The notes under the pieces are model-generated. The model made no database searches. It was given only the letters and a program-made list of their open reading frames with translations, and was not told where the DNA came from. DNA of 64,000 nt, taken from assembly GCF_053078305.1 (NCBI RefSeq), contig NZ_CP166879.1. One strand, written 5' to 3'. The stretch's first letter is position 1, and the number at the start of each line of letters is the position of its first letter. This document shows, in pieces, positions 9,259 to 56,970 of this stretch. Made by a program: the position numbers and the translations under genes.

Positions 9259-9260
9259 GT

Positions 9261-25608: not shown

Positions 25609-25961
25609 TGCGATACAGACGTGAAGACGCCGATGGCGATTACACCTTTGGCAGCGGTGATGACACCTGGCTGATTAACTCACCGGAGGCCGTGGCGCAG
25701 GCGGTAAAAACGCGATTCGAATTGTGGTATGGGCAATGGTTTCTCGACACCACCGAGGGGACTCCGTGGATCCAGTCCGTACTCGGTAAGCAGAAGCCGG
25801 AAACCTACAACCTGGCGATCCGTAAGCGCATCCTCGAAACGCGGGGCGTTAAATCAATCCTCTCTTTCAATACGACGGTGGATACCACGACCCGACGTGT
25901 CATGTTTTCCGCTGAAATCGACACTCTTTATGGAATAACGACTGTTACATCGGAGGCGTAA
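25608..25961 (+). CDS. Baseplate protein (gpW-like)
   Basis: 117 aa; gene order. Confidence 0.55.
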   Translation: MRYRREDADGDYTFGSGDDTWLINSPEAVAQAVKTRFELWYGQWFLDTTEGTPWIQSVLGKQKPETYNLAIRKRILETRGVKSILSFNTTVDTTTRRVMFSAEIDTLYGITTVTSEA

Positions 25962-27160
25962 TGGCTCTGAACCTTGATTCTCTCGGTTTATCTGCAAAGG
26001 TAACCGCGGAGGGGATCAGTGCGCCTGATTATCAGACGATACTCAGCACCCTGATTAGCTATTTTCAGCAGATTTATGGCAGTGATGCCTACCTCGAACC
26101 GGACAGCAAAGACGGCCAGATGGTGGCTCTGATGGCGCTGGCGATTCATGATGCCAATAATATGGCGATAACTGTCTACAACTGTTTTTCACCGGCAACC
26201 GGCTATGGGGCTGCACTGACCAGTAACGTGAAAATAAATGGTATTTCACGTAAAGGCGCGACGAACTCTACGGTTGATTTGCTTCTTACAGGAACTGCCG
26301 GAACAACCATCATTAATGGCAGCGTGAAAGACAGTAATAATGTGATATGGCGTTTGCCTGCTTCAGTAGTGGTCGGCGTGGATGGTACAGTGATGGCGAC
26401 CGCAACATGTTCCGTCAGTGGTGCAGTGGCGGCGCTGGCTGGAACTATCACTGAAATTAATACGCCAACCCGTGGCTGGGTTTCGGTAACTAATCCTGCT
26501 GCGGCTACTGTGGGCACTCTGGCAGAAACTGACGCGGAGTTACGTATCCGTCAGTCGCAAAGTGTTGCGTTGCCATCAATAACCCCATTTGAAGCACTGG
26601 ATGGTGCTGTTTCTAATGTTACCGGTGTAACCCGCCACAAACTCTATGAAAACGATACTGGTTCGGAGGACGGTAACGGGTTACCGCCACACTCTGTTGC
26701 TGTAATTGTGGATGGCGGTGATGTGACGGATATTGCTCAGGCTATCAGAGGGAATAAAGGCCAGGGGACAGCCACTCACGGTACAACATCCGTTACGGTT
26801 CCGGATAAATACGGCAATCCCCATGTAATCAAATTCTCGCGTTCCAGTGATGTGCCTGTTTATGCCCGGATTAAATTAAAAGTTTTTACGGGTTATACCT
26901 CACAGATAGGGCAGCAGATCCAGCAGGCTATTTCCGACTATATCAATAGTTTGACGATTGGTGATTCGGTCCTTTTAAGTCGCATTTACTCACCGGCGAA
27001 TCTTGGCGTGGTGAGTGGCGGGAATGCACGCTATTACGATATTCAGGAACTGACGATTGGGAAATCCCCGGGGGCTTTGTCGTCATCAAACATTGATATC
27101 AGATACAACGAATCTGCGTCCTGTACCCCGGAAAATATCGTTATAACGGTGGAGTCATGA
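25961..27160 (+). CDS. Baseplate protein (gpJ-like)
   Basis: 399 aa; gene order. Confidence 0.55.
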   Translation: MALNLDSLGLSAKVTAEGISAPDYQTILSTLISYFQQIYGSDAYLEPDSKDGQMVALMALAIHDANNMAITVYNCFSPATGYGAALTSNVKINGISRKGATNSTVDLLLTGTAGTTIINGSVKDSNNVIWRLPASVVVGVDGTVMATATCSVSGAVAALAGTITEINTPTRGWVSVTNPAAATVGTLAETDAELRIRQSQSVALPSITPFEALDGAVSNVTGVTRHKLYENDTGSEDGNGLPPHSVAVIVDGGDVTDIAQAIRGNKGQGTATHGTTSVTVPDKYGNPHVIKFSRSSDVPVYARIKLKVFTGYTSQIGQQIQQAISDYINSLTIGDSVLLSRIYSPANLGVVSGGNARYYDIQELTIGKSPGALSSSNIDIRYNESASCTPENIVITVES

Positions 27161-35242: not shown

Positions 35243-38200
35243 ATGATGGAAATTCTGCGTGGTTCGCCTGCACTGTCGGCATTCCGAATCAACAAACTGC
35301 TGGCACGTTTTCAGGCTGCCAGGCTCCCGGTTCACAATATTTACGCCGAGTATGTCCATTTTGCTGACCTCAATGCGCCGTTAAACGATGATGAGCACGC
35401 ACAACTTGAACGCCTGCTGAAATATGGCCCGGCACTCGCCAGCCACGCCCCGCAAGGCAAACTCCTGCTGGTGACCCCGCGTCCTGGCACCATCTCTCCC
35501 TGGTCTTCGAAAGCGACCGATATTGCCCATAACTGCGGGCTACAACAGGTAAACCGCCTTGAGCGCGGCGTTGCTTACTATATAGAAGCCGGTACGCTGA
35601 CCAATGAACAATGGCAGCAGGTTACCGCTGAACTGCACGACCGCATGATGGAAACGGTCTTTTTTGCTTTAGATGATGCAGAGCAGTTGTTTGCCCACCA
35701 TCAACCGACTCCGGTTACCAGCGTTGATTTGCTGGGGCAGGGCCGTCAGGCGCTGATCGACGCTAACCTGCGTCTTGGCTTGGCTCTGGCGGAAGATGAA
35801 ATTGACTATCTGCAGGATGCTTTCACAAAGCTTGGTCGTAACCCGAACGACATCGAGCTGTATATGTTCGCTCAGGCGAACTCTGAGCACTGCCGCCACA
35901 AAATTTTTAATGCCGACTGGATTATCGACGGTGAACAGCAGCCGAAATCGCTGTTCAAGATGATCAAAAATACTTTCGAAACCACGCCAGATCACGTTCT
36001 CTCTGCTTATAAAGATAACGCCGCCGTAATGGAAGGTTCTGAAGTGGGCCGCTACTTTGCTGACCACGAAACGGGCCGCTACGATTTCCATCAGGAACCG
36101 GCGCATATTCTGATGAAAGTCGAAACTCACAACCACCCGACGGCGATTTCTCCGTGGCCGGGCGCGGCGACCGGTTCCGGCGGCGAAATTCGTGATGAAG
36201 GCGCCACCGGACGCGGCGCGAAGCCGAAAGCGGGTTTGGTTGGTTTCTCCGTTTCCAACCTGCGAATTCCTGGCTTCGAACAGCCGTGGGAAGAAGATTT
36301 CGGTAAGCCTGAGCGCATTGTCACCGCGCTGGACATCATGACCGAAGGCCCGCTGGGCGGCGCGGCGTTTAACAACGAATTTGGTCGTCCGGCACTGAAT
36401 GGCTACTTCCGTACTTATGAAGAAAAAGTGAACAGCCACAACGGCGAAGAGCTGCGCGGTTATCACAAACCGATCATGCTGGCGGGCGGGATCGGCAACA
36501 TTCGCGCCGATCACGTACAAAAAGGCGAGATCAACGTCGGTGCGAAACTGGTCGTTCTCGGCGGCCCGGCAATGAACATCGGTCTTGGCGGCGGAGCGGC
36601 GTCTTCCATGGCGTCAGGTCAGTCTGATGCCGACCTCGACTTTGCTTCCGTACAGCGCGACAACCCGGAGATGGAGCGTCGCTGCCAGGAAGTGATCGAC
36701 CGTTGCTGGCAGCTTGGTGATGCCAACCCAATCCTGTTTATCCACGACGTCGGCGCTGGCGGTCTTTCTAACGCGATGCCGGAACTGGTGAGCGACGGCG
36801 GGCGCGGCGGTAAATTTGAACTGCGCGATATTCTAAGCGACGAACCGGGCATGAGCCCGCTGGAAATCTGGTGTAACGAATCCCAGGAACGCTACGTGCT
36901 GGCGGTTGCTGCCGATCAATTACCGCTGTTTGACGAACTGTGTAAGCGTGAGCGCGCACCCTACGCGGTGATTGGTGAAGCGACCGAAGAACTGCATCTT
37001 TCTCTGCACGATCGTCATTTTGATAATCAGCCGATCGATCTGCCGCTGGACGTCCTGCTTGGTAAAACGCCGAAGATGACCCGCGATGTACAAACGCTGA
37101 AAGCGAAGGGCGATGCGCTGGTCCGTGAAGGGATCACCATTGCAGACGCGGTGAAACGCGTACTGCATCTGCCGACCGTGGCGGAGAAAACTTTCCTGGT
37201 GACCATCGGTGACCGCAGCGTAACCGGCATGGTGGCGCGCGATCAGATGGTGGGGCCGTGGCAGGTGCCGGTCGCTAACTGCGCTGTCACTACCGCCAGC
37301 CTCGACAGCTACTACGGTGAAGCGATGGCGATTGGCGAGCGTGCGCCGGTTGCGCTGCTGGATTTCGCCGCCTCTGCCCGTCTGGCGGTCGGTGAAGCGT
37401 TAACCAATATTGCCGCAACACAGATTGGCGATATCAAACGCATTAAACTTTCCGCCAACTGGATGGCGGCGGCAGGCCACCCTGGTGAAGATGCGGGCCT
37501 GTATGAAGCCGTTAAAGCCGTGGGCGAAGAGCTTTGTCCGGCGCTGGGCCTGACGATCCCGGTGGGTAAAGACTCTATGTCGATGAAAACCCGCTGGCAG
37601 GAAGGTAACGAAGAGCGCGAAATGACGTCGCCGCTGTCGCTGGTGATTTCTGCATTTGCCCGCGTGGAAGATGTACGTCACACCATCACGCCGCAGCTTT
37701 CTACCGAAGATAACGCACTGCTGCTGATTGATTTGGGCAAAGGCAATAACGCGCTGGGCGCAACGGCGCTGGCGCAGGTTTATCGTCAGCTTGGCGATAA
37801 ACCGGCAGATGTACGCGATGTCGCGCAACTGAAAGGCTTCTATGACGCGATTCAGGCGCTGGTTGCACAGCGTAAGCTGCTGGCGTATCACGACCGCTCT
37901 GATGGCGGCCTGCTGGTAACGCTGGCGGAAATGGCCTTTGCTGGTCATTGTGGCATTGACGCTGATATCGCCACTCTGGGTGACGATCGCCTGGCGGCGT
38001 TGTTTAACGAAGAACTGGGTGCGGTGATTCAGGTTCGTGCCGCTGACCGTGAAGCGGTCGAATCCGTACTGGCACAGCATGGGCTTGCTGATTGCGTCCA
38101 TTATGTTGGGCAGGCGGTTTCCGGTGACCGTTTTGTGATTACCGCCAATGGGCAGACTGTATTCAGCGAAAGCCGCACTACGTTGCGTGTCTGGTGGGCA

Positions 38201-39130
38201 GAAACTACCTGGCAGATGCAGCGCCTGCGTGACAACCCGGAGTGTGCCGACCAGGAGCACCAGGCGAAATCAAACGACGCCGATCCTGGCCTGAATGTGA
38301 AACTGTCGTTCGATATCAACGAAGATGTGGCAGCACCGTATATTGCCACTGGCGCACGTCCGAAAGTTGCCGTGCTGCGTGAGCAGGGTGTGAACTCGCA
38401 TGTTGAAATGGCGGCAGCTTTCCACCGTGCGGGCTTTGATGCTATCGACGTGCATATGAGCGACCTGCTGGCTGGACGCACGGGCCTGGAGGATTTCCAC
38501 GCCCTGGTCGCGTGCGGTGGTTTCTCCTACGGTGATGTGCTGGGTGCCGGTGAAGGTTGGGCGAAGTCTATCCTGTTCAATGACCGTGTACGCGATGAGT
38601 TTGCAACCTTCTTCCACCGTCCGCAAACGCTGGCGCTGGGGGTATGTAACGGTTGCCAGATGATGTCTAATCTGCGTGAACTGATCCCAGGTAGTGAGTT
38701 GTGGCCACGTTTTGTGCGCAATACCTCCGATCGCTTTGAAGCGCGTTTCAGCCTGGTTGAAGTGACCCAAAGCCCGTCGCTGCTGTTGCAGGGGATGGTG
38801 GGCTCGCAAATGCCGATTGCTGTCTCTCATGGTGAAGGGCGCGTGGAAGTGCGTGATGCGGCGCATCTGGCGGCACTGGAAAGCAAAGGGCTGGTGGCAC
38901 TGCGCTATGTCGATAACTTCGGCAAAGTCACTGAAACCTACCCGGCTAACCCGAACGGTTCTCCGAATGGTATTACGGCGGTCACGACTGAAAGCGGTCG
39001 AGTCACCATTATGATGCCGCATCCGGAACGTGTTTTCCGTACTGTCAGCAACTCCTGGCATCCGGAAAACTGGGGCGAAGATGGCCCGTGGATGCGTATT
39101 TTCCGCAATGCGCGTAAGCAGTTGGGGTAA
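35243..39130 (+). CDS. purL: Phosphoribosylformylglycinamidine synthase
   Basis: 1295 aa from [12 protein letters not shown]; unmistakable large PurL. Confidence 0.95.
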
Positions 39131-39190
39131 GCCGTCAAACCCATTGGTTTTGCAACCCGCATCCGGCATTAAACACCAACCACTATTATA

Positions 39191-39216
39191 AGCTCCCAAC
39201 TCCGGGAGCTTTTTTG
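39191..39216 (+). terminator. purL rho-independent terminator (AGCTCCC / GGGAGCT then TTTTTT)
   Basis: Hairpin and T-run read directly. Confidence 0.55.
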
Positions 39217-39330
39217 TGTCTGTAAATCACGACAATGGGTGGTTTGGCGCGTCGCTTTTTGGCGACACTTAACTGATTGATTTAACTGAAATATAATAAG
39301 TTTATCTTAAGCTGTCTCTTTTTAGCGACA
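39217..39330 (+). promoter_or_regulatory. Three TGTC-N10-GACA activator sites (39217-39234, 39250-39267, 39313-39330) upstream of glmY; GlrR binding sites
   Basis: Inverted-repeat half-sites read directly; matches recalled GlrR site architecture. Confidence 0.55.
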
Positions 39331-39419
39331 CAGTGGCTGATTTACACCCAAATAGTGGAGAAGCCATAAACCCCTCAAAGCAACGTATAATCAGTACGTT
39401 ACCAAACTATTTTCTTTAT

Positions 39420-39439
39420 TGGCACAGTTACTGCATAAT
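39420..39439 (+). promoter_or_regulatory. glmY sigma-54 promoter (TGGCAC-N5-CTGCA) overlapping a sigma-70 -10 CATAAT
   Basis: -24/-12 elements read directly. Confidence 0.6.
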
Positions 39440-39446
39440 AGTAAGC

Positions 39447-39632
39447 AGTGGCTCATTCACCGACTTATGTCAGCCCCTTCGGGACGTGCTACATAAAATT
39501 CGAATGACGCACAACAAGGTGCCTGCCGTCCAACTTCTGATATCAGCGTAGCTATATCAACCATCGGGCGAAACGTCGAGTTAGGCACCGCCTTATTCCA
39601 TAACAAAGCCGGGTAATTCCCGGCTTTGTTGT
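39447..39632 (+). ncRNA. glmY: Small RNA GlmY
   Basis: Position between purL and glrK, sigma-54 promoter, terminal hairpin AAAGCCGGG / CCCGGCTTT plus U-run; sequence matches recall. Confidence 0.7.
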
Positions 39633-39688
39633 ATCTGAACTTCCCCTCGGTTAGCATCAGGCTATTCGCGTCTGACGAGAGTAACACC

Positions 39689-41116
39689 TTGAAACGCTGG
39701 CCCGTTTTTCCCCGCTCATTACGACAACTGGTAATGCTGGCATTTTTGCTGATTCTGCTACCCCTGTTGGTGCTGGCATGGCAAGCCTGGCAAAGCCTGA
39801 ATGCGCTTAGCGATCAGGCGGCGCTGGTTAACCGCACTACGCTTATTGATGCCCGGCGCAGTGAAGCGATGACCAACGCGGCACTGGAGATGGAGCGCAG
39901 CTACCGTCAGTATTGCGTGCTGGACGACCCTACGCTTGCGAAGGTTTATCAAAGCCAGCGCAAGCGTTACAGCGAAATGCTCGATGCTCACGCAGGCGTG
40001 CTGCCTGACGATAAACTTTACCAGGCATTGCGTCAGGACTTGAACAATCTGGCCCAACTTCAGTGTAACAACAGTGGTCCCGATGCTGCTGCCGCCGCGC
40101 GTCTTGAAGCCTTTGCCAGTGCCAATACCGAAATGGTGCAGGCCACGCGCACCGTGGTGTTCTCTCGTGGGCAGCAACTTCAGCGTGAAATCGCCGAACG
40201 TGGGCAATATTTTGGTTGGCAATCGCTGGTGCTATTTCTGGTGAGTCTGGTGATGGTGCTACTTTTCACGCGGATGATTATCGGTCCGGTGAAAAATATC
40301 GAGAGGATGATCAACCGGTTGGGGGAAGGGCGTTCACTGGGCAATAGCGTCTCGTTCAGTGGACCGAGCGAGTTACGCTCGGTTGGGCAACGTATTCTTT
40401 GGTTAAGTGAGCGCCTGTCATGGCTGGAATCCCAACGCCATCAATTTTTAAGACATTTATCTCATGAATTAAAAACGCCACTGGCGAGTATGCGCGAGGG
40501 CACTGAATTACTGGCTGACCAGGTTGTCGGGCCGCTTACGCCAGAGCAAAAAGAGGTGGTGAGCATTCTTGATAGCAGCAGCCGCAATTTGCAAAAGCTG
40601 ATCGAACAACTGCTTGATTACAACCGTAAACAGGCGGACAGTGCGGTGGAACTGGAGAATGTTGAGTTAGCACCGCTGGTGGAGACAGTAGTTTCTGCTC
40701 ATAGCCTGCCCGCACGGGCTAAAATGATGCATACCGACGTCGATCTCAAAGCAACAGCTTGCCTGGCGGAGCCAATGCTGCTGATGAGCGTACTGGATAA
40801 TCTTTACTCCAATGCGGTGAACTACGGGGCTGAATCCGGTAACATTTGCCTTCGCAGCAGTTTACATGGTGCGCGGGTTTATATTGATGTTATCAATACA
40901 GGCACGCCCATTCCGCAAGAGGAACGCGCCATGATCTTCGAACCCTTTTTTCAGGGAAGCCACCAGCGAAAAGGGGCGGTGAAGGGCAGCGGTCTGGGAT
41001 TAAGCATTGCCAGGGATTGTATTCGCCGTATGCAAGGGGAACTGTATCTGGTCGACGAGAGCGGGCAAGACGTTTGTTTCCGCATTGAATTACCGTCGTC
41101 GAAAAACACGAAATAA
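39689..41116 (+). CDS. glrK: Sensor histidine kinase GlrK
   Basis: TTG start gives 475 aa; histidine-kinase H-box and ATPase motifs; K-12 gene order. Confidence 0.85.
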   Translation: MKRWPVFPRSLRQLVMLAFLLILLPLLVLAWQAWQSLNALSDQAALVNRTTLIDARRSEAMTNAALEMERSYRQYCVLDDPTLAKVYQSQRKRYSEMLDAHAGVLPDDKLYQALRQDLNNLAQLQCNNSGPDAAAAARLEAFASANTEMVQATRTVVFSRGQQLQREIAERGQYFGWQSLVLFLVSLVMVLLFTRMIIGPVKNIERMINRLGEGRSLGNSVSFSGPSELRSVGQRILWLSERLSWLESQRHQFLRHLSHELKTPLASMREGTELLADQVVGPLTPEQKEVVSILDSSSRNLQKLIEQLLDYNRKQADSAVELENVELAPLVETVVSAHSLPARAKMMHTDVDLKATACLAEPMLLMSVLDNLYSNAVNYGAESGNICLRSSLHGARVYIDVINTGTPIPQEERAMIFEPFFQGSHQRKGAVKGSGLGLSIARDCIRRMQGELYLVDESGQDVCFRIELPSSKNTK

Positions 41117-41280: not shown

Positions 41281-41994
41281 ATGCGACACATTTTTCAACG
41301 ATTATTGCCCCGACGGCTGTGGCTGGCAGGGCTGCCATGTCTGGCATTGCTGGGTTGCGTGCAGAGTCACAATAAGCCAGCCATTGATACGCCAGCAGAA
41401 GAAAAAATTCCGGTTTATCAACTGGCTGACTATCTTTCTACTGAATGTAGCGACATCTGGGCGCTGCAAGGTAAATCAACTGAAACCAATCCGCTTTACT
41501 GGCTGCGGGCGATGGATTGTGCTGATCGTTTAATGCCTGCGCAGTCGCGTCAGCAAGCCCGCCAATATGACGACGGCAGCTGGCAAAATACCTTTAAACA
41601 AGGGATTTTGCTCGCCGACGCCAAAATTACGCCGTATGAGCGCCGCCAGCTGGTCGCGCGCATTGATGCGTTAAGTACCGAGATCCCGGCACAGGTTCGC
41701 CCACTGTATCAACTCTGGCGCGACGGTCAGGCGCTGCAACTGCAACTGGCGGAAGAGCGCCAACGCTACGGCAAACTCCAGCAGTCCAGTGACAGCGAGC
41801 TGGATACTTTGCGCCAGCAACATCACGTTCTACAACAGCAGCTGGAACTCACCACCCGCAAGCTGGAAAACCTGACCGATATTGAACGCCAGCTCTCGAC
41901 CCGCAAACCGGCTGGAAATTTCTCGCCGGATACGCCGCACGAGGGTGAAAAGCCCGCGCCATCCACCCATGAGGTCACTCCTGATGAGCCATAA
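41281..41994 (+). CDS. qseG: Lipoprotein QseG
   Basis: 237 aa with lipobox LLGC; between glrK and glrR. Confidence 0.85.
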   Translation: MRHIFQRLLPRRLWLAGLPCLALLGCVQSHNKPAIDTPAEEKIPVYQLADYLSTECSDIWALQGKSTETNPLYWLRAMDCADRLMPAQSRQQARQYDDGSWQNTFKQGILLADAKITPYERRQLVARIDALSTEIPAQVRPLYQLWRDGQALQLQLAEERQRYGKLQQSSDSELDTLRQQHHVLQQQLELTTRKLENLTDIERQLSTRKPAGNFSPDTPHEGEKPAPSTHEVTPDEP

Positions 41995-43318
41995 ACCTGC
42001 GCATTTATTATTGGTCGATGACGATCCGGGATTGCTGAAACTGCTTGGCCTGCGCCTGACCAGCGAAGGCTACAGTGTGGTCACGGCGGAAAGTGGCGCT
42101 GAAGGATTACGGGTACTGAATCGCGAAAAAGTAGATTTAGTTATCAGCGACCTGCGGATGGATGAAATGGACGGTATGCAGCTGTTTGCTGAAATCCAGA
42201 AAGTGCAGCCGGGAATGCCGGTAATTATTCTTACCGCGCATGGTTCTATTCCCGATGCCGTTGCTGCAACACAGCAGGGCGTTTTTAGTTTCCTCACCAA
42301 GCCAGTCGATAAAGACGCGCTATATCAGGCAATTGATGATGCGCTGGAACAATCCGCGCCAGCCACCGACGAACGCTGGCGCGAGGCGATTGTCACCCGC
42401 AGCCCGCTGATGCTGCGTTTGCTGGAACAGGCGCGGCTGGTGGCGCAATCAGACGTCAGCGTTTTGATTAATGGCCAGAGCGGCACCGGGAAAGAGATTT
42501 TCGCCCAGGCTATCCACAACGCCAGCCCGCGCAATAGCAAACCATTTATTGCTATTAACTGTGGTGCATTGCCTGAGCAATTGCTGGAGTCGGAGCTGTT
42601 TGGTCATGCGCGTGGCGCGTTTACTGGCGCTGTCAGCAATCGCGAAGGTTTATTCCAGGCGGCGGAAGGCGGAACGCTATTTCTCGATGAGATTGGCGAT
42701 ATGCCTGCGCCGTTGCAGGTCAAACTGTTGCGCGTGTTGCAGGAGCGTAAAGTGCGCCCGCTGGGCAGTAACCGCGATATTGATATCAATGTACGGATTA
42801 TTTCTGCCACTCACCGTGATCTGCCAAAAGCGATGGCGCGCGGGGAATTCCGCGAAGACCTCTATTACCGCCTCAACGTTGTCAGCCTGAAAATTCCGGC
42901 ACTGGCGGAGCGCACAGAAGACATTCCGCTACTGGCAAATCACCTGTTGCGCCAGGCGGCAGAGCGACATAAACCGTTTGTCCGCGCGTTCTCTACCGAT
43001 GCGATGAAACGCCTGATGACCGCGAGCTGGCCGGGTAATGTGCGCCAGTTGGTCAACGTGATTGAACAGTGCGTGGCGCTGACCTCATCTCCGGTGATTA
43101 GTGATGCATTAGTAGAGCAGGCGCTGGAGGGCGAAAACACGGCGCTGCCAACCTTTGTTGAGGCACGTAATCAGTTTGAACTCAACTATTTGCGTAAGCT
43201 GCTGCAAATTACCAAAGGCAACGTCACCCATGCGGCGAGAATGGCGGGGCGCAACCGGACAGAATTTTATAAACTGCTTTCCCGACACGAGCTGGATGCA
43301 AACGATTTCAAGGAATGA
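41984..43318 (+). CDS. glrR: Sigma-54-dependent response regulator GlrR
   Basis: Receiver domain, AAA+ sigma-54 activator motifs; 444 aa from [14 protein letters not shown]. Confidence 0.9.
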
Positions 43319-46730: not shown

Positions 46731-47924
46731 TCAAATCTGTCGTAACTGCGCCTCAACATACAAATAGCCAATTCCCAGCACCTGTTGTGCGCGGCTTAAT
46801 TGCCCGAAGCCAATTTGCGTCGCTTTCACGCTCGGTCCTTCGTCGCGGTCGAACGGGTTAAATCCTGTCTGGCGAATAATAGTATTAAGCCAGTTCTCAC
46901 CAAAGGCACAACTGCGACCGTACAACCAAATCTGATTAATATTGAGGATGTTGAGGAAGTTATACAGACTCAAACCAATGGCATTGGCAGAGCGATCAAC
47001 CCAGCTGGTGATCCACGGTTCTCCACTTTGCCAGGCAGCGATTAACTGCGCTGTAGTCAGTTTTTCAGGATCAAGCTGAGTATTAACCGGTTGTGATTTT
47101 AGCCATACCCGCGCCTGTTTTTTTAATGCGCTTAACGAGGCGACGGTTTCCAGGCAGCCGTAACGTCCACAGTCGCAGACGACGCCATCCGGATTAACGA
47201 TGGTGTGACCAATCTGTCCGCTACCATACAAACTGCCGCGATAAATTTGCTCGTTAATCACGAACGACGAGCCAATGCCGTAATCAACGTTGATCACGCA
47301 GAAATCCCGTTCCTGCGAATTATTTTGCCATTTTTCCGCCAGCGCCAGCATCACGCAGTCATTATCGACCATCACCCGAATGCCGAGCTTCTCTTCCAGC
47401 AGATACTTCACCTCAACCGGCGTTGTCCAGGGCGCTTGCGGCATGGTTTGCGACACTCCGGTCACAGGATCAACCTGACCGTGGATTGCCAGCGCCAGAT
47501 TGATGGTGCGGTCCGGCCACAATTTACGGTGGCGATGCCAGCATTTTTCGATTTCGGACAGCAGCGCCTGCGGCGTCGGTGCATCAATCTGTAAATACTC
47601 AAATTCACCTTTCGGACTTAAACAAGCATTAGCAACCTGACACTCAATACTGGTGGGCGTCACGTTCAGACACAGCGTCCAGTCACCCTCCGGCGCAATC
47701 AGCCATGTACCGCTACTATGCCCGCGCGTCTGGCTTTCATCGTCGATATTCACCACCCGTTTTTCGCTTTCCAGTTCCTGCAAAATATTACTGACTGCCG
47801 GAATCGAAATTTGCGCCAGCCGGGCCAGCGTTGATTTATTGGCGCGCTTTTGCCGGTACAGCAGTTCCAGAATCACGCATTTGTTATGGTGGCGAATCTG
47901 TTGATTGTTAATGCAGGCTCTCAT
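46731..47924 (-). CDS. yphH: ROK-family (NagC-like) transcriptional regulator YphH
   Basis: 397 aa from ATG 47924; K-12 gene order. Confidence 0.85.
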   Translation of the reverse strand: MRACINNQQIRHHNKCVILELLYRQKRANKSTLARLAQISIPAVSNILQELESEKRVVNIDDESQTRGHSSGTWLIAPEGDWTLCLNVTPTSIECQVANACLSPKGEFEYLQIDAPTPQALLSEIEKCWHRHRKLWPDRTINLALAIHGQVDPVTGVSQTMPQAPWTTPVEVKYLLEEKLGIRVMVDNDCVMLALAEKWQNNSQERDFCVINVDYGIGSSFVINEQIYRGSLYGSGQIGHTIVNPDGVVCDCGRYGCLETVASLSALKKQARVWLKSQPVNTQLDPEKLTTAQLIAAWQSGEPWITSWVDRSANAIGLSLYNFLNILNINQIWLYGRSCAFGENWLNTIIRQTGFNPFDRDEGPSVKATQIGFGQLSRAQQVLGIGYLYVEAQLRQI

Positions 47925-48041
47925 CTTCACTAAACCTTGTTTAGTTAATTGCGTGATTATTCCGCGAAAACATTGCCAGATTGTTCAATACACTGCCACA
48001 AATCTTTTAATTCAGTATGTCTTGTTAATATTGAGGGCACC

Positions 48042-51000
48042 ATGACTCCAGTAAAAGTGTGGCAAGAGCGCGTTGAGATCCCGACCTATGAAACCGGGCC
48101 GCAGGATATACATCCCATGTTCCTCGAAAATCGCGTTTATCAGGGATCGTCCGGCGCGGTTTATCCCTACGGCGTGACCGATACGCTGAGCGAGCAGAAA
48201 ACCCTGAAATCCTGGCAGGCGGTGTGGCTGGAAAACGACTACATCAAAGTGATGATCCTGCCGGAATTGGGCGGTCGGGTGCATCGCGCATGGGATAAAG
48301 TGAAACAGCGCGATTTTGTCTATCACAATGAAGTCATTAAACCTGCGCTGGTGGGGCTGCTGGGACCGTGGATCTCCGGCGGGATTGAGTTTAACTGGCC
48401 GCAACACCATCGCCCGACCACCTTTATGCCCGTTGATTTCACCCTCGAAGCCCATGAAGACGGCGCACAGACGGTGTGGGTAGGCGAAACGGAGCCGATG
48501 CATGGTTTACAGGTGATGACAGGTTTCACCCTGCGCCCTGACCGGGCGGCGCTGGAAATCGCCAGCCGCGTCTATAACGGCAACGCCACGCCGCGTCATT
48601 TCTTGTGGTGGGCCAACCCGGCAGTGAAAGGGGGGGAAGGGCATCAGAGCGTCTTTCCGCCGGATGTAACGGCGGTGTTTGATCACGGCAAACGGGCCGT
48701 CTCCGCTTTCCCTATCGCCACCGGCACTTACTACAAAGTGGACTACTCCGCTGGAGTGGACATTTCTCGCTATAAAAATGTGCCCGTTCCAACCTCATAT
48801 ATGGCTGAAAAATCACAGTACGATTTTGTCGGCGCGTGGTGTCACGATGAAGATGGCGGTTTGCTACACGTTGCCAACCACCATATTGCGCCAGGTAAAA
48901 AGCAGTGGAGCTGGGGACACAGTGAATTTGGCCAGGCGTGGGATAAGAGCCTAACTGATAATAACGGCCCGTATATCGAACTGATGACCGGTATTTTTGC
49001 CGATAACCAGCCCGATTTTACCTGGCTTGATGCTTACGAAGAGAAGCGTTTCGAGCAGTATTTCCTGCCTTATCATTCTTTGGGCATGGTGCAAAATGCC
49101 TCCCGCGATGCGGTGATAAAACTCCAGCGTAGTGAGCGGGGGATTGAGTGGGGGCTGTATGCCATCTCTCCGTTGAACGGATACCGCCTGGCGATCCGCG
49201 AAATCGGCAAATGCAACGCGTTACTTGATGATGCCGTGGCACTGATGCCTGCGACCGCTATCCAGGGCGTGTTGCACGGTATCAATCCTGAAAGGCTGAC
49301 CATTGAGCTCTCCGATGCCGACGGCAATATTGTACTGAGTTATCAGGAACATCAGCCGCAAGAGTTGCCGTTGCCGGACGTCGCCAAAGCGCCACTGGCA
49401 GCACAAGACATTACCAGTACAGATGAAGCCTGGTTTATCGGTCAGCATCTGGAGCAATATCATCACGCCAGCCGTTCACCGTTCGATTACTACCTGCGCG
49501 GCGTGGCGCTGGATCCGCTGGATTACCGCTGTAATCTGGCGCTGGCGATGCTGGAGTATAACCGCGCAGATTTCCCGCAAGCGGTGGCGTATGCCACTCA
49601 GGCTCTGAAACGCGCACATGCGCTGAACAAAAATCCGCAGTGCGGACAGGCGAGTTTGATTCGCGCCAGTGCTTACGAACGTCAGGGACAATATCAACAA
49701 GCCGAAGAGGATTTCTGGCGTGCGGTCTGGAGCGGCAACAGTAAAGCCGGAGGCTATTATGGTCTGGCACGACTGGCGGCGCGTAATGGTAACTTCGACG
49801 CGGGTCTGGATTTTTGCCAACAAAGTCTTCGCGCCAGCCCAACCAATCAGGAAGTGCTTTGCCTGCATAATCTGCTGCTGGTGTTAAGTGGTCGTCAGGA
49901 CAACGCGCGTTTGCAGCGCGAGAAACTGCTGCGCGATTATCCGCTGAACGCCACTCTGTGGTGGCTGAACTGGTTCGATGGTCGTAGCGAATCAGCTCTC
50001 GCGCAGTGGCGCGGTCTGTGTCAGGGACGCGACGTTAACGCCCTGATGACCGCCGGGCAACTGATTAACTGGGGAATGCCCACCCTGGCGGCAGAGATGC
50101 TGAACGCACTGGACTGCCAGCGCACGCTGCCGCTTTACCTGCAAGCCAGCTTGCTGCCGAAAGCCGAACGTGGCGAACTGGTCGCAAAAGCCATTGATGT
50201 CTTCCCGCAGTTTGTCCGTTTCCCGAATACGCTGGAAGAAGTGGCGGCGCTGGAGAGTATTGAAGAGTGCTGGTTTGCTCGCCATTTACTGGCCTGCTTC
50301 TACTACAACAAACGTAGCTACAACAAAGCCATTGCCTTATGGCAACGTTGCGTAGAGATGTCGCCGGAGTTTGCCGACGGCTGGCGCGGGTTAGCGATCC
50401 ATGCGTGGAATAAGCAACACGATTATGAGCTGGCCGCGCGTTATCTTGATAATGCTTATCAGCTTGCGCCGCAGGATGCACGTCTGCTTTTCGAACGGGA
50501 TTTGCTTGATAAGTTAAGTGGAGCCACACCGGAGAAACGACTGGCGCGTCTGGAAAATAATCTGGAAATTGCGCTGAAACGCGACGACATGACCGCAGAA
50601 CTGCTCAATTTGTGGCATCTCACGGGGCAGGCAGACAAAGCGGCGGACATTCTCGCCACGCGCAAATTCCACCCGTGGGAAGGCGGGGAAGGGAAGGTCA
50701 CCAGTCAGTTTATCCTCAACCAGTTATTACGCGCCTGGCAGCATCTTGATGCCAGACAGCCGCAGCAGGCCAGCGAACTGCTTCATGCCGCGCTGCATTA
50801 TCCGGAGAATTTAAGCGAAGGCCGTTTACCGGGGCAAACTGATAACGACATCTGGTTCTGGCAGGCGATATGCGCCAACGCGCAGGGCGATGAAACTGAA
50901 GCGACGCGTTGTTTACGTCTGGCGGCGACCGGCGATCGCACCATTAACATCCACAGTTATTACAACGATCAGCCGGTTGATTATCTCTTCTGGCAAGGAA

Positions 51001-51323
51001 TGGCGCTACGACTGCTGGGCGAACAACACACCGCACAGCAACTGTTTAGTGAAATGAAACAGTGGGCGCAAGAGATGGCGAAAACCAGTATTGAGGCGGA
51101 TTTCTTTGCTGTTTCACAACCTGATCTGTTGTCGCTGTATGGCGATTTACAACAGCAGCATAAAGAAAAATGCCTGATGGTGGCGATGCTGGCGTCCGCG
51201 GGACTCGGGGAGGTTGCGCAATATGAGTCTGCTCGCGCTGAATTGACGGCGATTAATCCGGCCTGGCCGAAAGCGGCATTATTCACCACTGTGATGCCTT
51301 TTATTTTTAACTACGTTCGCTAA
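48042..51323 (+). CDS. yphG: Large TPR-repeat protein YphG
   Basis: ATG 48042 with SD GAGGG; upstream TTG at 47949 would give the 1124-aa form in the ORF track. Confidence 0.8.
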   Translation: MTPVKVWQERVEIPTYETGPQDIHPMFLENRVYQGSSGAVYPYGVTDTLSEQKTLKSWQAVWLENDYIKVMILPELGGRVHRAWDKVKQRDFVYHNEVIKPALVGLLGPWISGGIEFNWPQHHRPTTFMPVDFTLEAHEDGAQTVWVGETEPMHGLQVMTGFTLRPDRAALEIASRVYNGNATPRHFLWWANPAVKGGEGHQSVFPPDVTAVFDHGKRAVSAFPIATGTYYKVDYSAGVDISRYKNVPVPTSYMAEKSQYDFVGAWCHDEDGGLLHVANHHIAPGKKQWSWGHSEFGQAWDKSLTDNNGPYIELMTGIFADNQPDFTWLDAYEEKRFEQYFLPYHSLGMVQNASRDAVIKLQRSERGIEWGLYAISPLNGYRLAIREIGKCNALLDDAVALMPATAIQGVLHGINPERLTIELSDADGNIVLSYQEHQPQELPLPDVAKAPLAAQDITSTDEAWFIGQHLEQYHHASRSPFDYYLRGVALDPLDYRCNLALAMLEYNRADFPQAVAYATQALKRAHALNKNPQCGQASLIRASAYERQGQYQQAEEDFWRAVWSGNSKAGGYYGLARLAARNGNFDAGLDFCQQSLRASPTNQEVLCLHNLLLVLSGRQDNARLQREKLLRDYPLNATLWWLNWFDGRSESALAQWRGLCQGRDVNALMTAGQLINWGMPTLAAEMLNALDCQRTLPLYLQASLLPKAERGELVAKAIDVFPQFVRFPNTLEEVAALESIEECWFARHLLACFYYNKRSYNKAIALWQRCVEMSPEFADGWRGLAIHAWNKQHDYELAARYLDNAYQLAPQDARLLFERDLLDKLSGATPEKRLARLENNLEIALKRDDMTAELLNLWHLTGQADKAADILATRKFHPWEGGEGKVTSQFILNQLLRAWQHLDARQPQQASELLHAALHYPENLSEGRLPGQTDNDIWFWQAICANAQGDETEATRCLRLAATGDRTINIHSYYNDQPVDYLFWQGMALRLLGEQHTAQQLFSEMKQWAQEMAKTSIEADFFAVSQPDLLSLYGDLQQQHKEKCLMVAMLASAGLGEVAQYESARAELTAINPAWPKAALFTTVMPFIFNYVR

Positions 51324-51419
51324 ACCCTATTAACTGTAATATTTGAGCGGCACGTGCTGCCGCTCATCACAAAATAATTAGAATAAGCCGTTGTTAATAA
51401 AAACCCTACAGGAGGCTCT

Positions 51420-52403
51420 ATGCCTAAAAAAATGAGAACAACCCGTAATCTATTATTAATGGCTACGCTATTAGGTAGCGCACTATTTGCCAGAGCTGCG
51501 GATAAAGAAATGACCATTGGCGCAATATACCTTGATACTCAGGGATATTACGCTGGAGTGCGTCAGGGCGTTCAGGATGCGGCAAAAGATTCTTCAGTAC
51601 AGGTACAGTTAATTGAAACTAACGCCCAGGGTGATATTTCGAAAGAAAGTACCTTTGTTGATACCCTCGTGGCGCGTAATGTCGATGCTATTATTTTATC
51701 GGCAGTGTCTGAAAATGGCAGTAGCCGTACCGTTCGTCGCGCCAGTGAAGCGGGTATTCCGGTGATTTGCTACAACACCTGTATTAATCAAAAGGGGGTC
51801 GATAAATATGTCTCGGCGTATCTGGTCGGCGATCCGCTGGAATTTGGTAAAAAACTGGGTAACGCTGCCGCCGATTATTTTATTGCCAATAAAATTGACC
51901 AGCCGAAAATTGCCGTCATCAATTGCGAAGCCTTTGAAGTTTGTGTGCAGCGACGTAAAGGATTTGAAGAAGTATTAAAATCCCGCGTTCCCGGCGCGCA
52001 AATTGTCGCTAATCAGGAAGGGACTGTTTTAGATAAAGCGATTTCCGTTGGTGAAAAACTGATTATCTCCACGCCGGATCTCAACGCCATTATGGGGGAA
52101 TCGGGCGGTGCGACACTCGGCGCGGTAAAAGCGGTACGTAATCAAAATCAGGCCGGAAAAATTGCTGTTTTCGGTTCGGATATGACAACCGAAATTGCTC
52201 AGGAGCTGGAAAACAATCAGGTGCTGAAAGCGGTAGTGGATATTTCCGGTAAGAAAATGGGCAATGCTGTTTTCGCGCAAACATTGAAGGTTATCAATAA
52301 ACAAGCCGACGGTGAAAAAGTGATTCAGGTGCCAATCGATCTCTATACCAAAACGGAAGACGGTAAACAGTGGCTGGCAACGCACGTTGATGGTCTGCCC
52401 TAA
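51420..52403 (+). CDS. yphF: ABC sugar transporter periplasmic binding protein YphF
   Basis: 327 aa with signal peptide; K-12 gene order. Confidence 0.85.
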   Translation: MPKKMRTTRNLLLMATLLGSALFARAADKEMTIGAIYLDTQGYYAGVRQGVQDAAKDSSVQVQLIETNAQGDISKESTFVDTLVARNVDAIILSAVSENGSSRTVRRASEAGIPVICYNTCINQKGVDKYVSAYLVGDPLEFGKKLGNAAADYFIANKIDQPKIAVINCEAFEVCVQRRKGFEEVLKSRVPGAQIVANQEGTVLDKAISVGEKLIISTPDLNAIMGESGGATLGAVKAVRNQNQAGKIAVFGSDMTTEIAQELENNQVLKAVVDISGKKMGNAVFAQTLKVINKQADGEKVIQVPIDLYTKTEDGKQWLATHVDGLP

Positions 52404-52425
52404 TCGCTGATTCGCAGAGGTCCCT

Positions 52426-53937
52426 ATGTTCACGGCAACAGAGGCAGTCCCGGTAGCAAAAGTGGTGGCAGGAAATAAGCGTTATCCCGGCGTCGTTGCG
52501 TTGGATAACGTTAACTTCACGCTCAATAAAGGCGAGGTTCGTGCGCTGTTAGGCAAAAACGGCGCGGGCAAATCGACCCTCATTCGAATGCTTACCGGTA
52601 GCGAACGTCCGGATAGCGGTGATATCTGGATTGGCGAGACGCGACTGGAAGGCGACGAAGCTACGCTGACTCGCCGTGCCGCTGAACTGGGGGTTCGTGC
52701 GGTTTATCAGGAGTTAAGTCTGGTGGAAGGGCTGACGGTGGCGGAAAACCTCTGCCTCGGTCAGTGGCCCCGCCACAACGGCATGATTGATTACCTGCAA
52801 ATGGCGCAGGATGCCCAACGTTGCTTACAGGCGCTGGGCGTTGACGTTAGTCCTGAACAACTTGTTTCAACACTAAGCCCGGCGCATAAGCAGCTGGTGG
52901 AAATTGCGCGGGTGATGAAGGGCGAGCCGCGCGTGGTCATTCTTGATGAACCTACCAGTTCGCTTGCGAGTGCGGAAGTTGAACTGGTGATCAGCGCGGT
53001 GAAAAAGATGTCGGCACTGGGCGTGGCGGTGATTTATGTCAGCCACCGGATGGAAGAAATTCGCCGCATTGCCTCCTGTGCCACCGTTATGCGCGACGGG
53101 CAGGTGGCTGGCGATGTGATGCTCGAAAACACTTCCACGCATCATATTGTGTCGCTAATGCTAGGGCGCGATCACGTTGATATTGCGCCGGTTGCCCCTC
53201 AGGAAATTGTGGATCAGGCCGTGCTGGAAGTCCGTGCGTTACGCCATAAGCCCAAGCTGGAGGATATCAGTTTTACGCTACGTCGTGGCGAAGTGCTCGG
53301 CATTGCTGGTCTGCTGGGGGCAGGGCGCAGTGAATTGCTGAAAGCGATTGTTGGGCTGGAGACGTATGAACAGGGCGAAATTGTTATCAACGGCGAGAAA
53401 ATCATGCGCCCCGATTACGGCGACATGCTGAAACGCGGCATTGGCTATACGCCAGAAAACCGCAAAGAAGCGGGGATCATTCCCTGGCTGGGCGTTGACG
53501 AAAATACAGTGCTGACCAATCGGCAAAAAATCAGCGCCAACGGTGTGCTGCAATGGTCCACCATCCGCCGCCTGACCGAAGAGGTGATGCAGCGGATGAC
53601 GGTCAAGGCCGCCAGTAGCGAAACACCCATCGGCACGCTTTCTGGCGGCAATCAGCAAAAAGTGGTGATCGGTCGTTGGGTCTATGCCGCCAGCCAGATT
53701 TTGTTGCTCGACGAGCCAACGCGCGGCGTCGATATCGAAGCCAAACAGCAGATTTACCGTATTGTCCGTGAGCTGGCTGCCGAAGGAAAAAGCGTGGTGT
53801 TTATCTCCAGTGAAGTGGAGGAGTTACCGCTGGTGTGCGACCGCATTCTGTTGTTACAGCACGGTACGTTCTCGCAGGAGTTTCACGCTCCGGTCAATGT
53901 GGATGAGCTGATGTCCGCCATTCTGTCTGTGCACTGA
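52426..53937 (+). CDS. yphE: ABC transporter ATP-binding protein YphE (tandem ATPase domains)
   Basis: 503 aa; Walker A GKNGAGKST and LSGG signature. Confidence 0.85.
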   Translation: MFTATEAVPVAKVVAGNKRYPGVVALDNVNFTLNKGEVRALLGKNGAGKSTLIRMLTGSERPDSGDIWIGETRLEGDEATLTRRAAELGVRAVYQELSLVEGLTVAENLCLGQWPRHNGMIDYLQMAQDAQRCLQALGVDVSPEQLVSTLSPAHKQLVEIARVMKGEPRVVILDEPTSSLASAEVELVISAVKKMSALGVAVIYVSHRMEEIRRIASCATVMRDGQVAGDVMLENTSTHHIVSLMLGRDHVDIAPVAPQEIVDQAVLEVRALRHKPKLEDISFTLRRGEVLGIAGLLGAGRSELLKAIVGLETYEQGEIVINGEKIMRPDYGDMLKRGIGYTPENRKEAGIIPWLGVDENTVLTNRQKISANGVLQWSTIRRLTEEVMQRMTVKAASSETPIGTLSGGNQQKVVIGRWVYAASQILLLDEPTRGVDIEAKQQIYRIVRELAAEGKSVVFISSEVEELPLVCDRILLLQHGTFSQEFHAPVNVDELMSAILSVH

Positions 53938-53960
53938 TGAATTTTACCGAGGAACCTAAG

Positions 53961-54959
53961 ATGTCTGCTTCGTCATTACCATTGCCGCAGGGCAAGAGCG
54001 TCTCGCTCAAACAATTTGTCAGTCGCCATATTAATGAGATCGGTTTGCTGGTGGTGATTGCCATTCTTTATCTGGTCTTCTCCCTGAACGCGCCTGGCTT
54101 TATCTCATTGAATAACCAGATGAACGTGCTGCGCGATGCCGCCACCATTGGGATTGCCGCCTGGGCGATGACGCTGATTATTATCTCCGGTGAAATTGAT
54201 GTCAGCGTTGGGCCGATGGTGGCTTTTGTCTCGGTGTGCCTGGCATTTTTGCTGCAATTTGAAGTTCCGCTGGCGGTGGCGTGTCTGCTGGTGTTGCTGT
54301 TAGGCGCGCTGATGGGAACGCTGGCCGGGGTGCTGCGCGGCGTGTTTAACGTACCAAGTTTCGTTGCCACACTGGGGCTGTGGAGCGCCCTGCGCGGAAT
54401 GGGGCTGTTTATGACCAACGCACTGCCAGTGCCGATTGACGAAAACGAGGTGCTGGACTGGCTGGGCGGACAATTTCTCGGTGTGCCGGTATCCGCGCTG
54501 ATCATGATGGTGCTGTTTGCGCTGTTTGTGTTCATTAGCCGAAAAACCGCCTTCGGGCGCTCGGTTTTTGCCGTTGGCGGTAATGCCACGGCGGCGCAGT
54601 TGTGCGGTATTAACGTTCGTCGGGTACGCATTCTTATCTTTACCCTTTCGGGATTATTAGCGGCGGTGACCGGCATTTTGTTGGCGGCGCGCCTCGGTTC
54701 TGGTAACGCAGGTGCGGCAAACGGTCTGGAGTTTGACGTCATCGCCGCGGTCGTGGTCGGCGGTACGGCACTTTCCGGCGGTCGCGGTTCCCTGTTCGGT
54801 ACATTGCTTGGTGTGCTGGTGATTACGCTAATCGGTAACGGTCTGGTGCTGCTCGGTATTAACTCCTTTTTCCAGCAGGTGGTACGCGGCGTCATCATCG
54901 TGGTGGCGGTGCTGGCGAATATCTTGCTGACCCAGCGAAGCAGTAAAGCGAAACGCTAA
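53961..54959 (+). CDS. yphD: ABC transporter permease YphD
   Basis: Multi-pass hydrophobic protein; start at the ATG giving 332 aa. Confidence 0.8.
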   Translation: MSASSLPLPQGKSVSLKQFVSRHINEIGLLVVIAILYLVFSLNAPGFISLNNQMNVLRDAATIGIAAWAMTLIIISGEIDVSVGPMVAFVSVCLAFLLQFEVPLAVACLLVLLLGALMGTLAGVLRGVFNVPSFVATLGLWSALRGMGLFMTNALPVPIDENEVLDWLGGQFLGVPVSALIMMVLFALFVFISRKTAFGRSVFAVGGNATAAQLCGINVRRVRILIFTLSGLLAAVTGILLAARLGSGNAGAANGLEFDVIAAVVVGGTALSGGRGSLFGTLLGVLVITLIGNGLVLLGINSFFQQVVRGVIIVVAVLANILLTQRSSKAKR

Positions 54960-55024
54960 ACCTTAACGCCCCTGGCGCGGGTGCGGCAGGGATGAAAATT
55001 AATCGTATTGTTAATGAGGGATTT

Positions 55025-56086
55025 ATGAAAACGATGCTGGCAGCTTATTTACCAGGAAATTCGACCGTCGATCTGCGGGAAGTTGCGGTGCCGACGCCGG
55101 GGATTAACCAGGTACTGATCAAAATGAAATCCTCCGGGATTTGCGGAAGCGATGTCCACTATATCTACCATCAACACCGCGCCACGGCGGCGGCGCCCGA
55201 TAAACCGTTATACCAGGGCTTTATCAACGGTCATGAGCCGTGCGGGCAAATTGTGGCGATGGGGCAAGGCTGTCGCCATTTTAAAGAGGGTGATCGCGTG
55301 CTGGTGTATCACATTTCTGGCTGTGGTTTTTGCCCGAACTGCCGCCGCGGCTTTCCTATCTCTTGTACTGGCAAAGGAAAAGCGGCTTACGGCTGGCAGC
55401 GTGACGGCGGTCATGCCGAATATCTGCTGGCGGAAGAAAAAGATCTGATCCTCCTGCCGGATGCGCTGAGCTACGAAGATGGTGCGTTTATCAGTTGCGG
55501 CGTTGGCACGGCCTATGAAGGGATTTTGCGCGGCCAAGTTTCCGGCAGCGATAACGTGCTGGTGGTCGGTCTGGGGCCGGTCGGCATGATGGCGATGATG
55601 CTGGCGAAAGGTCGCGGTGCAAAACGGATCATCGGCGTTGATATGCTGCCGGAACGTCTGGCGATGGCAAAACAGTTAGGGGTGATGGATCACGGTTATT
55701 TAGCGACCACCGAAGGTCTGCCGCAGATAATTGCTGAACTTACCCACGGTGGCGCGGATGTTGCGCTCGATTGTTCCGGTAATGCCGCAGGTCGCTTGCT
55801 GGCACTGCAATCCACTGCTGACTGGGGGCGGGTGGTTTACATTGGTGAAACCGGAAAAGTGGAATTCGAGGTCAGCGCCGATCTGATGCACCATCAACGG
55901 CGGATTATTGGCTCCTGGGTGACCAGTCTGTTCCATATGGAAAAATGCGCCCACGATTTGACTGACTGGAAGCTGTGGCCGCGTAACGCCATTACTCATC
56001 GCTTCTCGCTGGAACAGGCAGGTGATGCCTATGCGCTGATGGCGAGCGGCAAATGCGGGAAAGTTGTGATTAACTTCCCGGATTAA
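55025..56086 (+). CDS. yphC: Zinc-dependent alcohol/sugar dehydrogenase YphC
   Basis: 353 aa; GHEP and Rossmann GLGPVG motifs. Confidence 0.85.
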   Translation: MKTMLAAYLPGNSTVDLREVAVPTPGINQVLIKMKSSGICGSDVHYIYHQHRATAAAPDKPLYQGFINGHEPCGQIVAMGQGCRHFKEGDRVLVYHISGCGFCPNCRRGFPISCTGKGKAAYGWQRDGGHAEYLLAEEKDLILLPDALSYEDGAFISCGVGTAYEGILRGQVSGSDNVLVVGLGPVGMMAMMLAKGRGAKRIIGVDMLPERLAMAKQLGVMDHGYLATTEGLPQIIAELTHGGADVALDCSGNAAGRLLALQSTADWGRVVYIGETGKVEFEVSADLMHHQRRIIGSWVTSLFHMEKCAHDLTDWKLWPRNAITHRFSLEQAGDAYALMASGKCGKVVINFPD

Positions 56087-56097
56087 GGAGTTAGCGG

Positions 56098-56970
56098 ATG
56101 ACCATCTATACCTTATCTCACGGGGGGCTCACGCTGGACGTTTCTGACCAGGGCGGCGTAATCGAAGGCTTCTGGCGCGATACGACGCCGCTCTTACGTC
56201 CTGGTAAAAAAAGCGGTGTGGCAACCGATGCCTCCTGTTTTCCGCTGGTGCCATTTGCAAACCGGGTGAGCGGCAACCGTTTTGTCTGGCAGGGGCGTGA
56301 GTATCAACTGCAACCGAATGTTGAATGGGATGCGCACTATCTACACGGCGATGGCTGGCTGAGCGAGTGGCAATGTGTCTCGCACAGCGATGATAGTTTG
56401 TGTCTGGTGTATGAACATCGCAGCGGTGTCTATCACTATCGGGTAAGTCAGGCGTTTCATTTAACGGCGGATACGCTGACGGTGACGCTCTCTGTCACCA
56501 ATCAAGGGGCAGAGACGCTGCCATTTGGTACCGGCTGGCATCCTTATTTTCCGTTGTCGCCGCAAACGCGGATTCAGGCACAGGCGAGCGGTTACTGGCT
56601 GGAGCGGGAGCAGTGGCTGGCGGGTGAGTTTTGCGAGCAGCTACCGCAAGAACTGGATTTTAACCAGCTCGCGCCGTTGCCGCGCCAGTGGGTGAACAAT
56701 GGTTTTGCCGGATGGAATGGTCAGGCCCGCATCGAGCAGCCGCAGGAGGGTTATGCCATCATCATAGAAACGACGCCACCTGCACCGTGTTATTTCATCT
56801 TTGTTTCCGACCCGGCGTTTGATAAAGGATATGCGTTTGATTTCTTCTGTCTGGAGCCGATGAGCCATGCGCCGGATGACCATCATCGCCCGGAAGGGGG
56901 GGACCTCATTGCGCTTGCGCCGGGGGAATCAACAACCTCAGAGATGTCGTTGCGGGTAGAGTGGCTGTAA
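56098..56970 (+). CDS. yphB: Aldose 1-epimerase family protein YphB
   Basis: 290 aa; K-12 gene order. Confidence 0.8.
   Translation: MTIYTLSHGGLTLDVSDQGGVIEGFWRDTTPLLRPGKKSGVATDASCFPLVPFANRVSGNRFVWQGREYQLQPNVEWDAHYLHGDGWLSEWQCVSHSDDSLCLVYEHRSGVYHYRVSQAFHLTADTLTVTLSVTNQGAETLPFGTGWHPYFPLSPQTRIQAQASGYWLEREQWLAGEFCEQLPQELDFNQLAPLPRQWVNNGFAGWNGQARIEQPQEGYAIIIETTPPAPCYFIFVSDPAFDKGYAFDFFCLEPMSHAPDDHHRPEGGDLIALAPGESTTSEMSLRVEWL

Follow-up and report, generated by a model that had tools for sequence, protein, structure and literature searches.

In Escherichia coli K-12 the response regulator GlrR binds to three TGTCN10GACA motifs that lie >100 bp upstream of the small RNA gene glmY (Goepel et al., PMC3045617). 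This gene's sigma-54 promoter requires the sites ABS2 and ABS3 but can do without ABS1; ABS3 is flanked by two IHF-like sites (WATCARXXXXTTR), the distal one of which is essential as well, and transcription of glmY depends on rpoN, glrR and IHF (PMC3045617). In addition, the hexamer CATAAT has been characterised by mutagenesis as a sigma-70 -10 element overlapping the -12 element of the sigma-54 promoter (PMC3045617). GlmY is made as a transcript of 184 nt and trimmed to a processed form of 148 nt, which mimics the homologous small RNA GlmZ and sequesters RapZ, the adaptor protein of RNase E (PMC4152352). RapZ that is free of glucosamine-6-phosphate (GlcN6P) stimulates phosphorylation of QseE/QseF (GlrK/GlrR) and in this way glmY transcription, and the binding of GlmY to RapZ limits the QseE/QseF response (PMC7073468).

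Here we analyzed the interval 39217-39632 of a 64-kb stretch of DNA (64,000 nt, in the following called the window), for which an earlier note, made from the sequence alone, had proposed a complete glmY locus. We assign a probability of about 97% to the reading that this interval is the E. coli glmY sRNA gene together with its complete upstream control region, and there is no evidence that contradicts the identification as glmY. The feature is already known and was interpreted correctly in the earlier note, which was also right in rating it as not novel: the gene, its dual sigma-54/sigma-70 promoter and the GlrK/GlrR-RapZ-GlmZ-glmS circuit have been established by experiment in K-12 and carry little weight as a discovery. 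What our analysis adds is a natural variant, rare and recurrent, in the best conserved of the GlrR sites. The coordinates of all features are given in Table 1.

Table 1. Features of the glmY locus, its neighbouring genes and the prophage, in coordinates of the window
Feature	Position	Strand	Relative to +1	Remarks
purL (phosphoribosylformylglycinamidine synthase)	35243-39130	+		Upstream neighbour; NCBIfam NF003672, 2275 bits
purL intrinsic terminator	39190-39216	+		8-bp stem and T6 tract, abuts ABS1; -13.6 kcal/mol, z -4.5 (terminator scan)
ABS1 (distal GlrR site)	39217-39234		-230 to -213	TGTCTGTAAATCACGACA; exact TGTC-N10-GACA
ABS2 (middle GlrR site)	39250-39267		-197 to -180	CGTCGCTTTTTGGCGACA; CGTC-N10-GACA, one mismatch at first base
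IHF site 1 (distal)	39270-39282	-		AATCAATCAGTTA; matches consensus WATCARNNNNTTR; between ABS2 and ABS3
ABS3 (proximal GlrR site)	39313-39330		-134 to -117	TGTCTCTTTTTAGCGACA; exact TGTC-N10-GACA
IHF site 2 (proximal)	39389-39401	+		AATCAGTACGTTA; matches consensus WATCARNNNNTTR; K-12-identical
sigma-54 -24/-12 element	39420-39435	+		TGGCACAGTTACTGCA (TGGCAC-AGTTA-CTGCA); K-12-identical
sigma-70 -10 hexamer CATAAT	39434-39439	+		Overlaps TGC of the sigma-54 -12 element; K-12-identical
glmY primary transcript	39447-39630	+		184 nt; +1 is A39447, mapped from K-12 b4441
GlmY core, 148 nt (SL1 and central RapZ-binding SL2)	39447-39594	+		RF00128 match; corresponds to the processed active form
glmY intrinsic terminator	39600-39632	+		Perfect 14-bp inverted repeat, GCCGGG/CCCGGC core, TAATT loop
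glrK/qseE sensor kinase	39689-41116	+		TTG start; 473/475 identical to K-12; qseE in the TUM13936 annotation
qseG lipoprotein	41281-41994	+		NF007997, 359 bits; coordinates from the TUM13936 annotation
glrR/qseF sigma-54-dependent response regulator	41984-43318	+		NF011695, 980 bits; 444/444 K-12-identical
Prophage primase/helicase	3580-5772
Prophage small and large terminase	8686-10883
Prophage portal	10883-12349
Prophage head protease	12989-14209
Prophage major head	14731-15672
Prophage tail sheath	17777-18922
Prophage tape measure	19986-21995
Prophage baseplate	25961-27160

Identity of the locus

The covariance-model match to GlmY, on which the earlier note had made its reading depend, was found. 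When the whole 64-kb window was compared with Rfam, one match scored above the gathering score, namely GlmY_tke1 (RF00128) on the + strand at 39447-39594 with 147.1 bits (gathering score 33, E 8e-33), covering positions 1-163 of the 163 model positions. The alignment to K-12 glmY that had likewise been proposed places b4441 (184 nt) at 39447-39630 with 183 of 184 nucleotides identical and both mapped ends in agreement, and the promoter is almost identical too. The sole difference within the gene is at +54, where the window has U and K-12 has A. This position falls within an internal loop of the Rfam structure, and U is the commoner state, as most genera and four of the seven other E. coli alleles have it. 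From -82 to the start codon of glrK the window is K-12-identical except for +54 and -2 (G here, C in K-12); 24 further substitutions or indels relative to K-12 all lie in unconstrained spacer upstream of -82.

The gene lies between purL, which ends at 39130, and glrK, which starts at 39689, just as the earlier note had placed it, with the glrK start 59 nt after the 3' end of glmY. The start of purL was taken from the RefSeq annotation of E. coli TUM13936 (100% identical), the mechanical open reading frame (ORF) starting at 35084. We observed the gene order purL-glmY-glrK-qseG-glrR-glnB-hmp, which is the order of K-12. A stretch of 601 bp around glmY occurs in 5425 of 5426 complete E. coli genomes and lies between purL and qseE/glrK in every one of them; that of the window is 100% identical to that of TUM13936. 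The RefSeq annotation of this twin holds no feature between purL and qseE, so glmY is easily overlooked; the annotation of MG1655 (K-12) lists the ncRNA glmY (b4441, 184 nt) and nothing else here. Taken together, K-12 identity, gene order and the published architecture are all reproduced, and the match to the known GlmY/GlrK-GlrR circuit drawn by the earlier note holds.

The RNA might instead be the paralogue GlmZ, a base-pairing activator of glmS, as the two RNAs are homologues from one Rfam clan (CL00011) and have the central stem-loop in common (PMC4152352). However, at overlapping matches cmscan keeps only the best member of a clan, and this member is GlmY with 147 bits; furthermore, the 183/184 identity is to glmY b4441, and the place between purL and glrK is that of glmY. 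The clan-best match, the b4441 identity and the gene position refute a GlmZ identity, to which we give next to no probability, and the RNA is treated as GlmY in the following.

Several observations concern the variation of this region. Identity of at least 99% over 39100-39700 (601 bp) is found in just 8 of 5425 E. coli genomes, most genomes ranging from 90 to 99%. The variation is concentrated in the spacers between the binding sites and 3' of the purL stop, and binding sites, promoter and GlmY are nearly invariant across E. coli, leaving a clear phylogenetic footprint. Many E. coli carry an 18-bp palindromic REP-like insert, CGGCATTYACGCCGCATC, directly 3' of the purL stop; it is absent from the window (39160-39165) and from K-12 and explains the two length classes of 601 and 618 bp among the matches. 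In E. coli GMF065 the gene of an IS200/IS605-family transposase lies ~100 bp upstream of ABS1, in the usual place of purL and its terminator; glmY and all three ABS sites of this strain are intact. Compared with K-12, GlrK has asparagine instead of histidine at positions 119 and 378, of which N378 adjoins the conserved asparagine of the ATP-binding N-box; its accession is common to strains B and MS20657, which suggests a common allele.

Transcript, terminator and promoters

Folding of the 184-nt transcript gave -64.2 kcal/mol (z -5.5), and its minimum-energy structure contains the 5' stem-loop SL1, the central SL2 and the Rho-independent terminator. The transcript of approximately 185 nt described in the earlier note corresponds to the annotation-mapped transcript here, except that the latter has 184 nt and stops 2 nt before the end coordinate given there. 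Its strong terminator was recovered as the 14-bp perfect hairpin at 39600-39632, which has a folding energy of -23.3 kcal/mol (z -8.6) and is K-12-identical; the tract TTTGTTGT follows or overlaps it.

Also present is the -24/-12 element with the overlapping -10 hexamer CATAAT (39420-39435 and 39434-39439), both K-12-identical. The sigma-54 element has one mismatch from TGGCAC-N5-TTGCA and ends 11 nt before +1. Searching the window for the sigma-54 consensus at this stringency returned two matches against 2.3 expected, which taken alone is not above chance; the significance of the element lies in its position and its identity to the K-12 promoter and not in the consensus match. For CATAAT we found no -35 hexamer matching at 4 of 6 positions at a spacing of 16-18 nt.

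A generic promoter and terminator scan of the window reported neither the glmY promoter nor the glmY terminator. The promoter was missed because it has no usable -35 hexamer, and the terminator because the scan extends the hairpin through A/T pairs, so that too few T are left in the tail. Both misses are due to the workings of the scan and are not evidence against the promoter or the terminator.

GlrR and IHF binding sites

The earlier note had described three TGTC-N10-GACA sites. This is accurate for ABS1 and ABS3, which match exactly and are invariant in eight E. coli alleles, but ABS2 reads CGTC-N10-GACA; three perfect sites are present in K-12 but not in this sequence. The positions of the two IHF-consensus matches fix the numbering of the sites in the window, as they lie on either side of ABS3, as published (PMC3045617). 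Start-to-start spacing is 33 bp between ABS1 and ABS2 and 63 bp between ABS2 and ABS3, corresponding to ~3 and ~6 helical turns.

For evaluation of the cluster we counted motif occurrences in the whole 64-kb window. Exact TGTC-N10-GACA occurs just twice, as ABS1 and ABS3, and sites with at most one mismatch are not in excess (16 observed versus 22.8 expected). When the window was simulated 1000 times with a first-order Markov model, two exact sites never came to lie within 120 bp, and three sites of at most one mismatch did so in 14 of the 1000 simulations. The clustering of the GlrR sites is beyond chance.

Comparison across Enterobacterales

We scanned species-representative genomes with a pattern composed of the sigma-54 core (TGGCAC-N6-TGC) and the GlmY 5' end and obtained at least 120 stretches. 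Among the matches listed, 81 Enterobacterales loci show the three-site architecture; they form a sample and not a census. The presence of the sigma-54 core in these 81 loci is given by construction, as the retrieval pattern requires an intact promoter core; the three-site upstream architecture goes beyond this pattern. A spacing of 32/33 and 63 bp is kept in 78 of the 81 listed loci. Among the 81, a perfect ABS2 is present in 76, a perfect ABS1 in 62 and a perfect ABS3 in 34. A GlrK homologue follows downstream on the same strand in 76/81, the other five loci holding too little downstream DNA. The overlapping -10 element TGCATAAT was seen in 35 of the 81, in line with the published limitation of the sigma-70 overlap to some genera.

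Next, the GlmY 5' regions of 80 species were aligned. The core helices of SL1 and SL2 are kept, compensatory changes occur at six pairs and loop lengths are variable. RNAalifold, applied to 155-nt slices of these regions, recovered the SL1 and SL2 cores alone; neither the outer SL2 helix nor the variable loops were retained, owing to the fixed-length slices and the gappy MAFFT alignment.

These data also bear on whether the interval could encode a small protein, with the RNA features being incidental. Two ORFs on the mechanical ORF list would be candidates, one of 72 aa at 39333-39551 (+) and one of 76 aa at 39457-39687 (-). However, the loop indels across the 80 species are of many lengths while the helices are kept, as is typical of a structured RNA and not of a coding frame. 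Moreover, the start of the 72-aa ORF would precede the promoter, and K-12 annotation has the ncRNA alone at this place. We regard a small protein as extremely improbable and retain the reading of the interval as the glmY RNA gene.

A rare variant in ABS2

The mismatch in ABS2 concerns its first base (39250), which is C here and T in K-12; the spacer of the site additionally carries a C-to-T change relative to K-12. All seven other diverse E. coli alleles that we compared read TGTC at ABS2. A 54-mer of the window around ABS2 was found in 6 of 5426 complete E. coli genomes, a count that covers one flanking context only; queries with the C base in two other flanking contexts yielded 10 additional genomes, and the control query with T 2120 genomes. 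The change is thus present in 16 or more of the 5426 complete genomes (at least 0.3%), to which contexts beyond these three could add a few; it is rare and, from its occurrence in three sequence contexts, recurrent. Across the 81 listed species loci, ABS2 begins with T in 77 cases, with C in 3 and with G in 1, and positions 2, 3, 4, 13, 15, 16 and 17 are invariant; all of the latter are intact in the window. The three loci with CGTC belong to Enterobacter sp. Bisph1, Cedecea sulfonylureivorans and Atlantibacter subterranea; glrK lies downstream in Bisph1 and Cedecea, and the downstream DNA of the Atlantibacter locus is too short to tell. A compensating change in GlrR was considered and is ruled out by the 444/444 identity of the protein to K-12 GlrR.

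The change could measurably weaken GlrR binding, so that in this lineage glmY would be driven mostly by sigma-70 and would respond poorly to GlrK/GlrR. ABS2 is essential for the activity of the K-12 sigma-54 promoter (PMC3045617), it is the best conserved of the three sites with a near-constant T at its first position, few E. coli carry the C allele, and the unchanged GlrR protein offers no compensation. However, the same CGTC is found in three other species, and within E. coli the change arose in three or more sequence contexts, which suggests that it is tolerated. The outermost position of the half-site is also the least constrained one, the cross-species invariant positions being untouched, and one mismatch in ABS3 is common among other species. 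Weighing these points, we consider a measurable loss of GlrR-dependent activation unlikely, if well above negligible. The effect of the change is probably mild, and in our reading from the sequence comparison it would be a tolerated or mildly weakening polymorphism, which may slightly weaken the GlrR-dependent arm in this strain.

If the change does weaken GlrR binding, the lineages carrying it would have a naturally attenuated input of GlcN6P, an envelope precursor, and of QseE/QseF into GlmY, and glmY expression would be shifted towards constitutive sigma-70 transcription. The variant could also serve as a natural allele for probing how far GlrR tolerates deviation from its recognition sequence.

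Other regions of the window

We take the K-12 map to place the genes from acpS to rpoE beside pgpC/tadA/mltF/purL, with rpoE ~18 kb upstream. The sigma-54 promoter of rpoE, the second known GlrR target, was sought at this distance; a prophage lies there in place of rpoE. The prophage is of the myovirus type and occupies about 3500-29000, on the side of pgpC/tadA/mltF/purL expected to hold the K-12 acpS-to-rpoE genes. An accessory sugar-uptake cluster was observed between glyA and the hca operon at 46731-56970. It comprises a ROK-family regulator on the - strand, a 1124-aa protein with DUF5107 and TPR, a periplasmic sugar-binding protein, an ABC ATPase, a permease, a zinc alcohol dehydrogenase and an aldose 1-epimerase.

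Proposed mechanism

Family membership, the identity of gene and promoter to K-12, the presence and spacing of the cis elements, the identical GlrR and the conservation in the 81 listed species loci come from the present analysis; the start site, the use of two promoters, the trimming of the RNA, the sequestration of RapZ and the feedback loop we infer by carrying over the K-12 experiments to this sequence. Under this model, two promoters would share the start site A39447, sigma-70 acting via CATAAT and sigma-54 via TGGCAC-N5-CTGCA. Phosphorylated GlrR (QseF) bound at -230, -197 and -134 would switch on the sigma-54 promoter, and IHF would bend the DNA between the GlrR sites and the promoter so that GlrR reaches the polymerase. 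The 184-nt transcript would end at the 39600-39632 hairpin and then be trimmed to ~148 nt. GlmY would not pair with a target but would act as a GlmZ mimic that soaks up the adaptor protein RapZ. With RapZ sequestered, GlmZ would survive by escaping RNase E cleavage and would activate translation of glmS, the enzyme making glucosamine-6-phosphate. RapZ free of GlcN6P would in turn stimulate GlrK/GlrR and close the feedback loop.

Comparison with known systems

GlmZ (sraJ/ryiA, clan CL00011) is a small RNA homologous to GlmY; the central RapZ-binding stem-loop is the same in both, and in many Enterobacterales GlmZ also has a GlrR/sigma-54 promoter (PMC3045617). Unlike GlmY, which has no pairing region and acts as a decoy, GlmZ pairs with the glmS mRNA and is itself cut by RNase E, for which RapZ serves as adaptor (PMC4152352). 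The gene of GlmZ lies at a different chromosomal locus, outside the window; glmS, rpoN and ihfA/B are not part of the window either.

The closest system is glmY of K-12 (b4441; formerly sroF/tke1), with which the window has the start, length, terminator and promoter core of the gene in common as well as ABS1, ABS3, both IHF sites and the flanking genes. They differ in ABS2, which runs CGTC...TTTTTGG... in the window and TGTC...TTTCTGG... in K-12. The glmY promoters of Salmonella, Citrobacter, Yersinia, Serratia, Proteus and other genera combine a sigma-54 element, three ABS at 32/33 and 63 bp and a downstream glrK as observed here, and the distance of ABS3 to the promoter varies among other Enterobacterales from -93 to -145. 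In those species departures from the consensus are frequent in ABS1 and ABS3; the deviating site of the window is ABS2.
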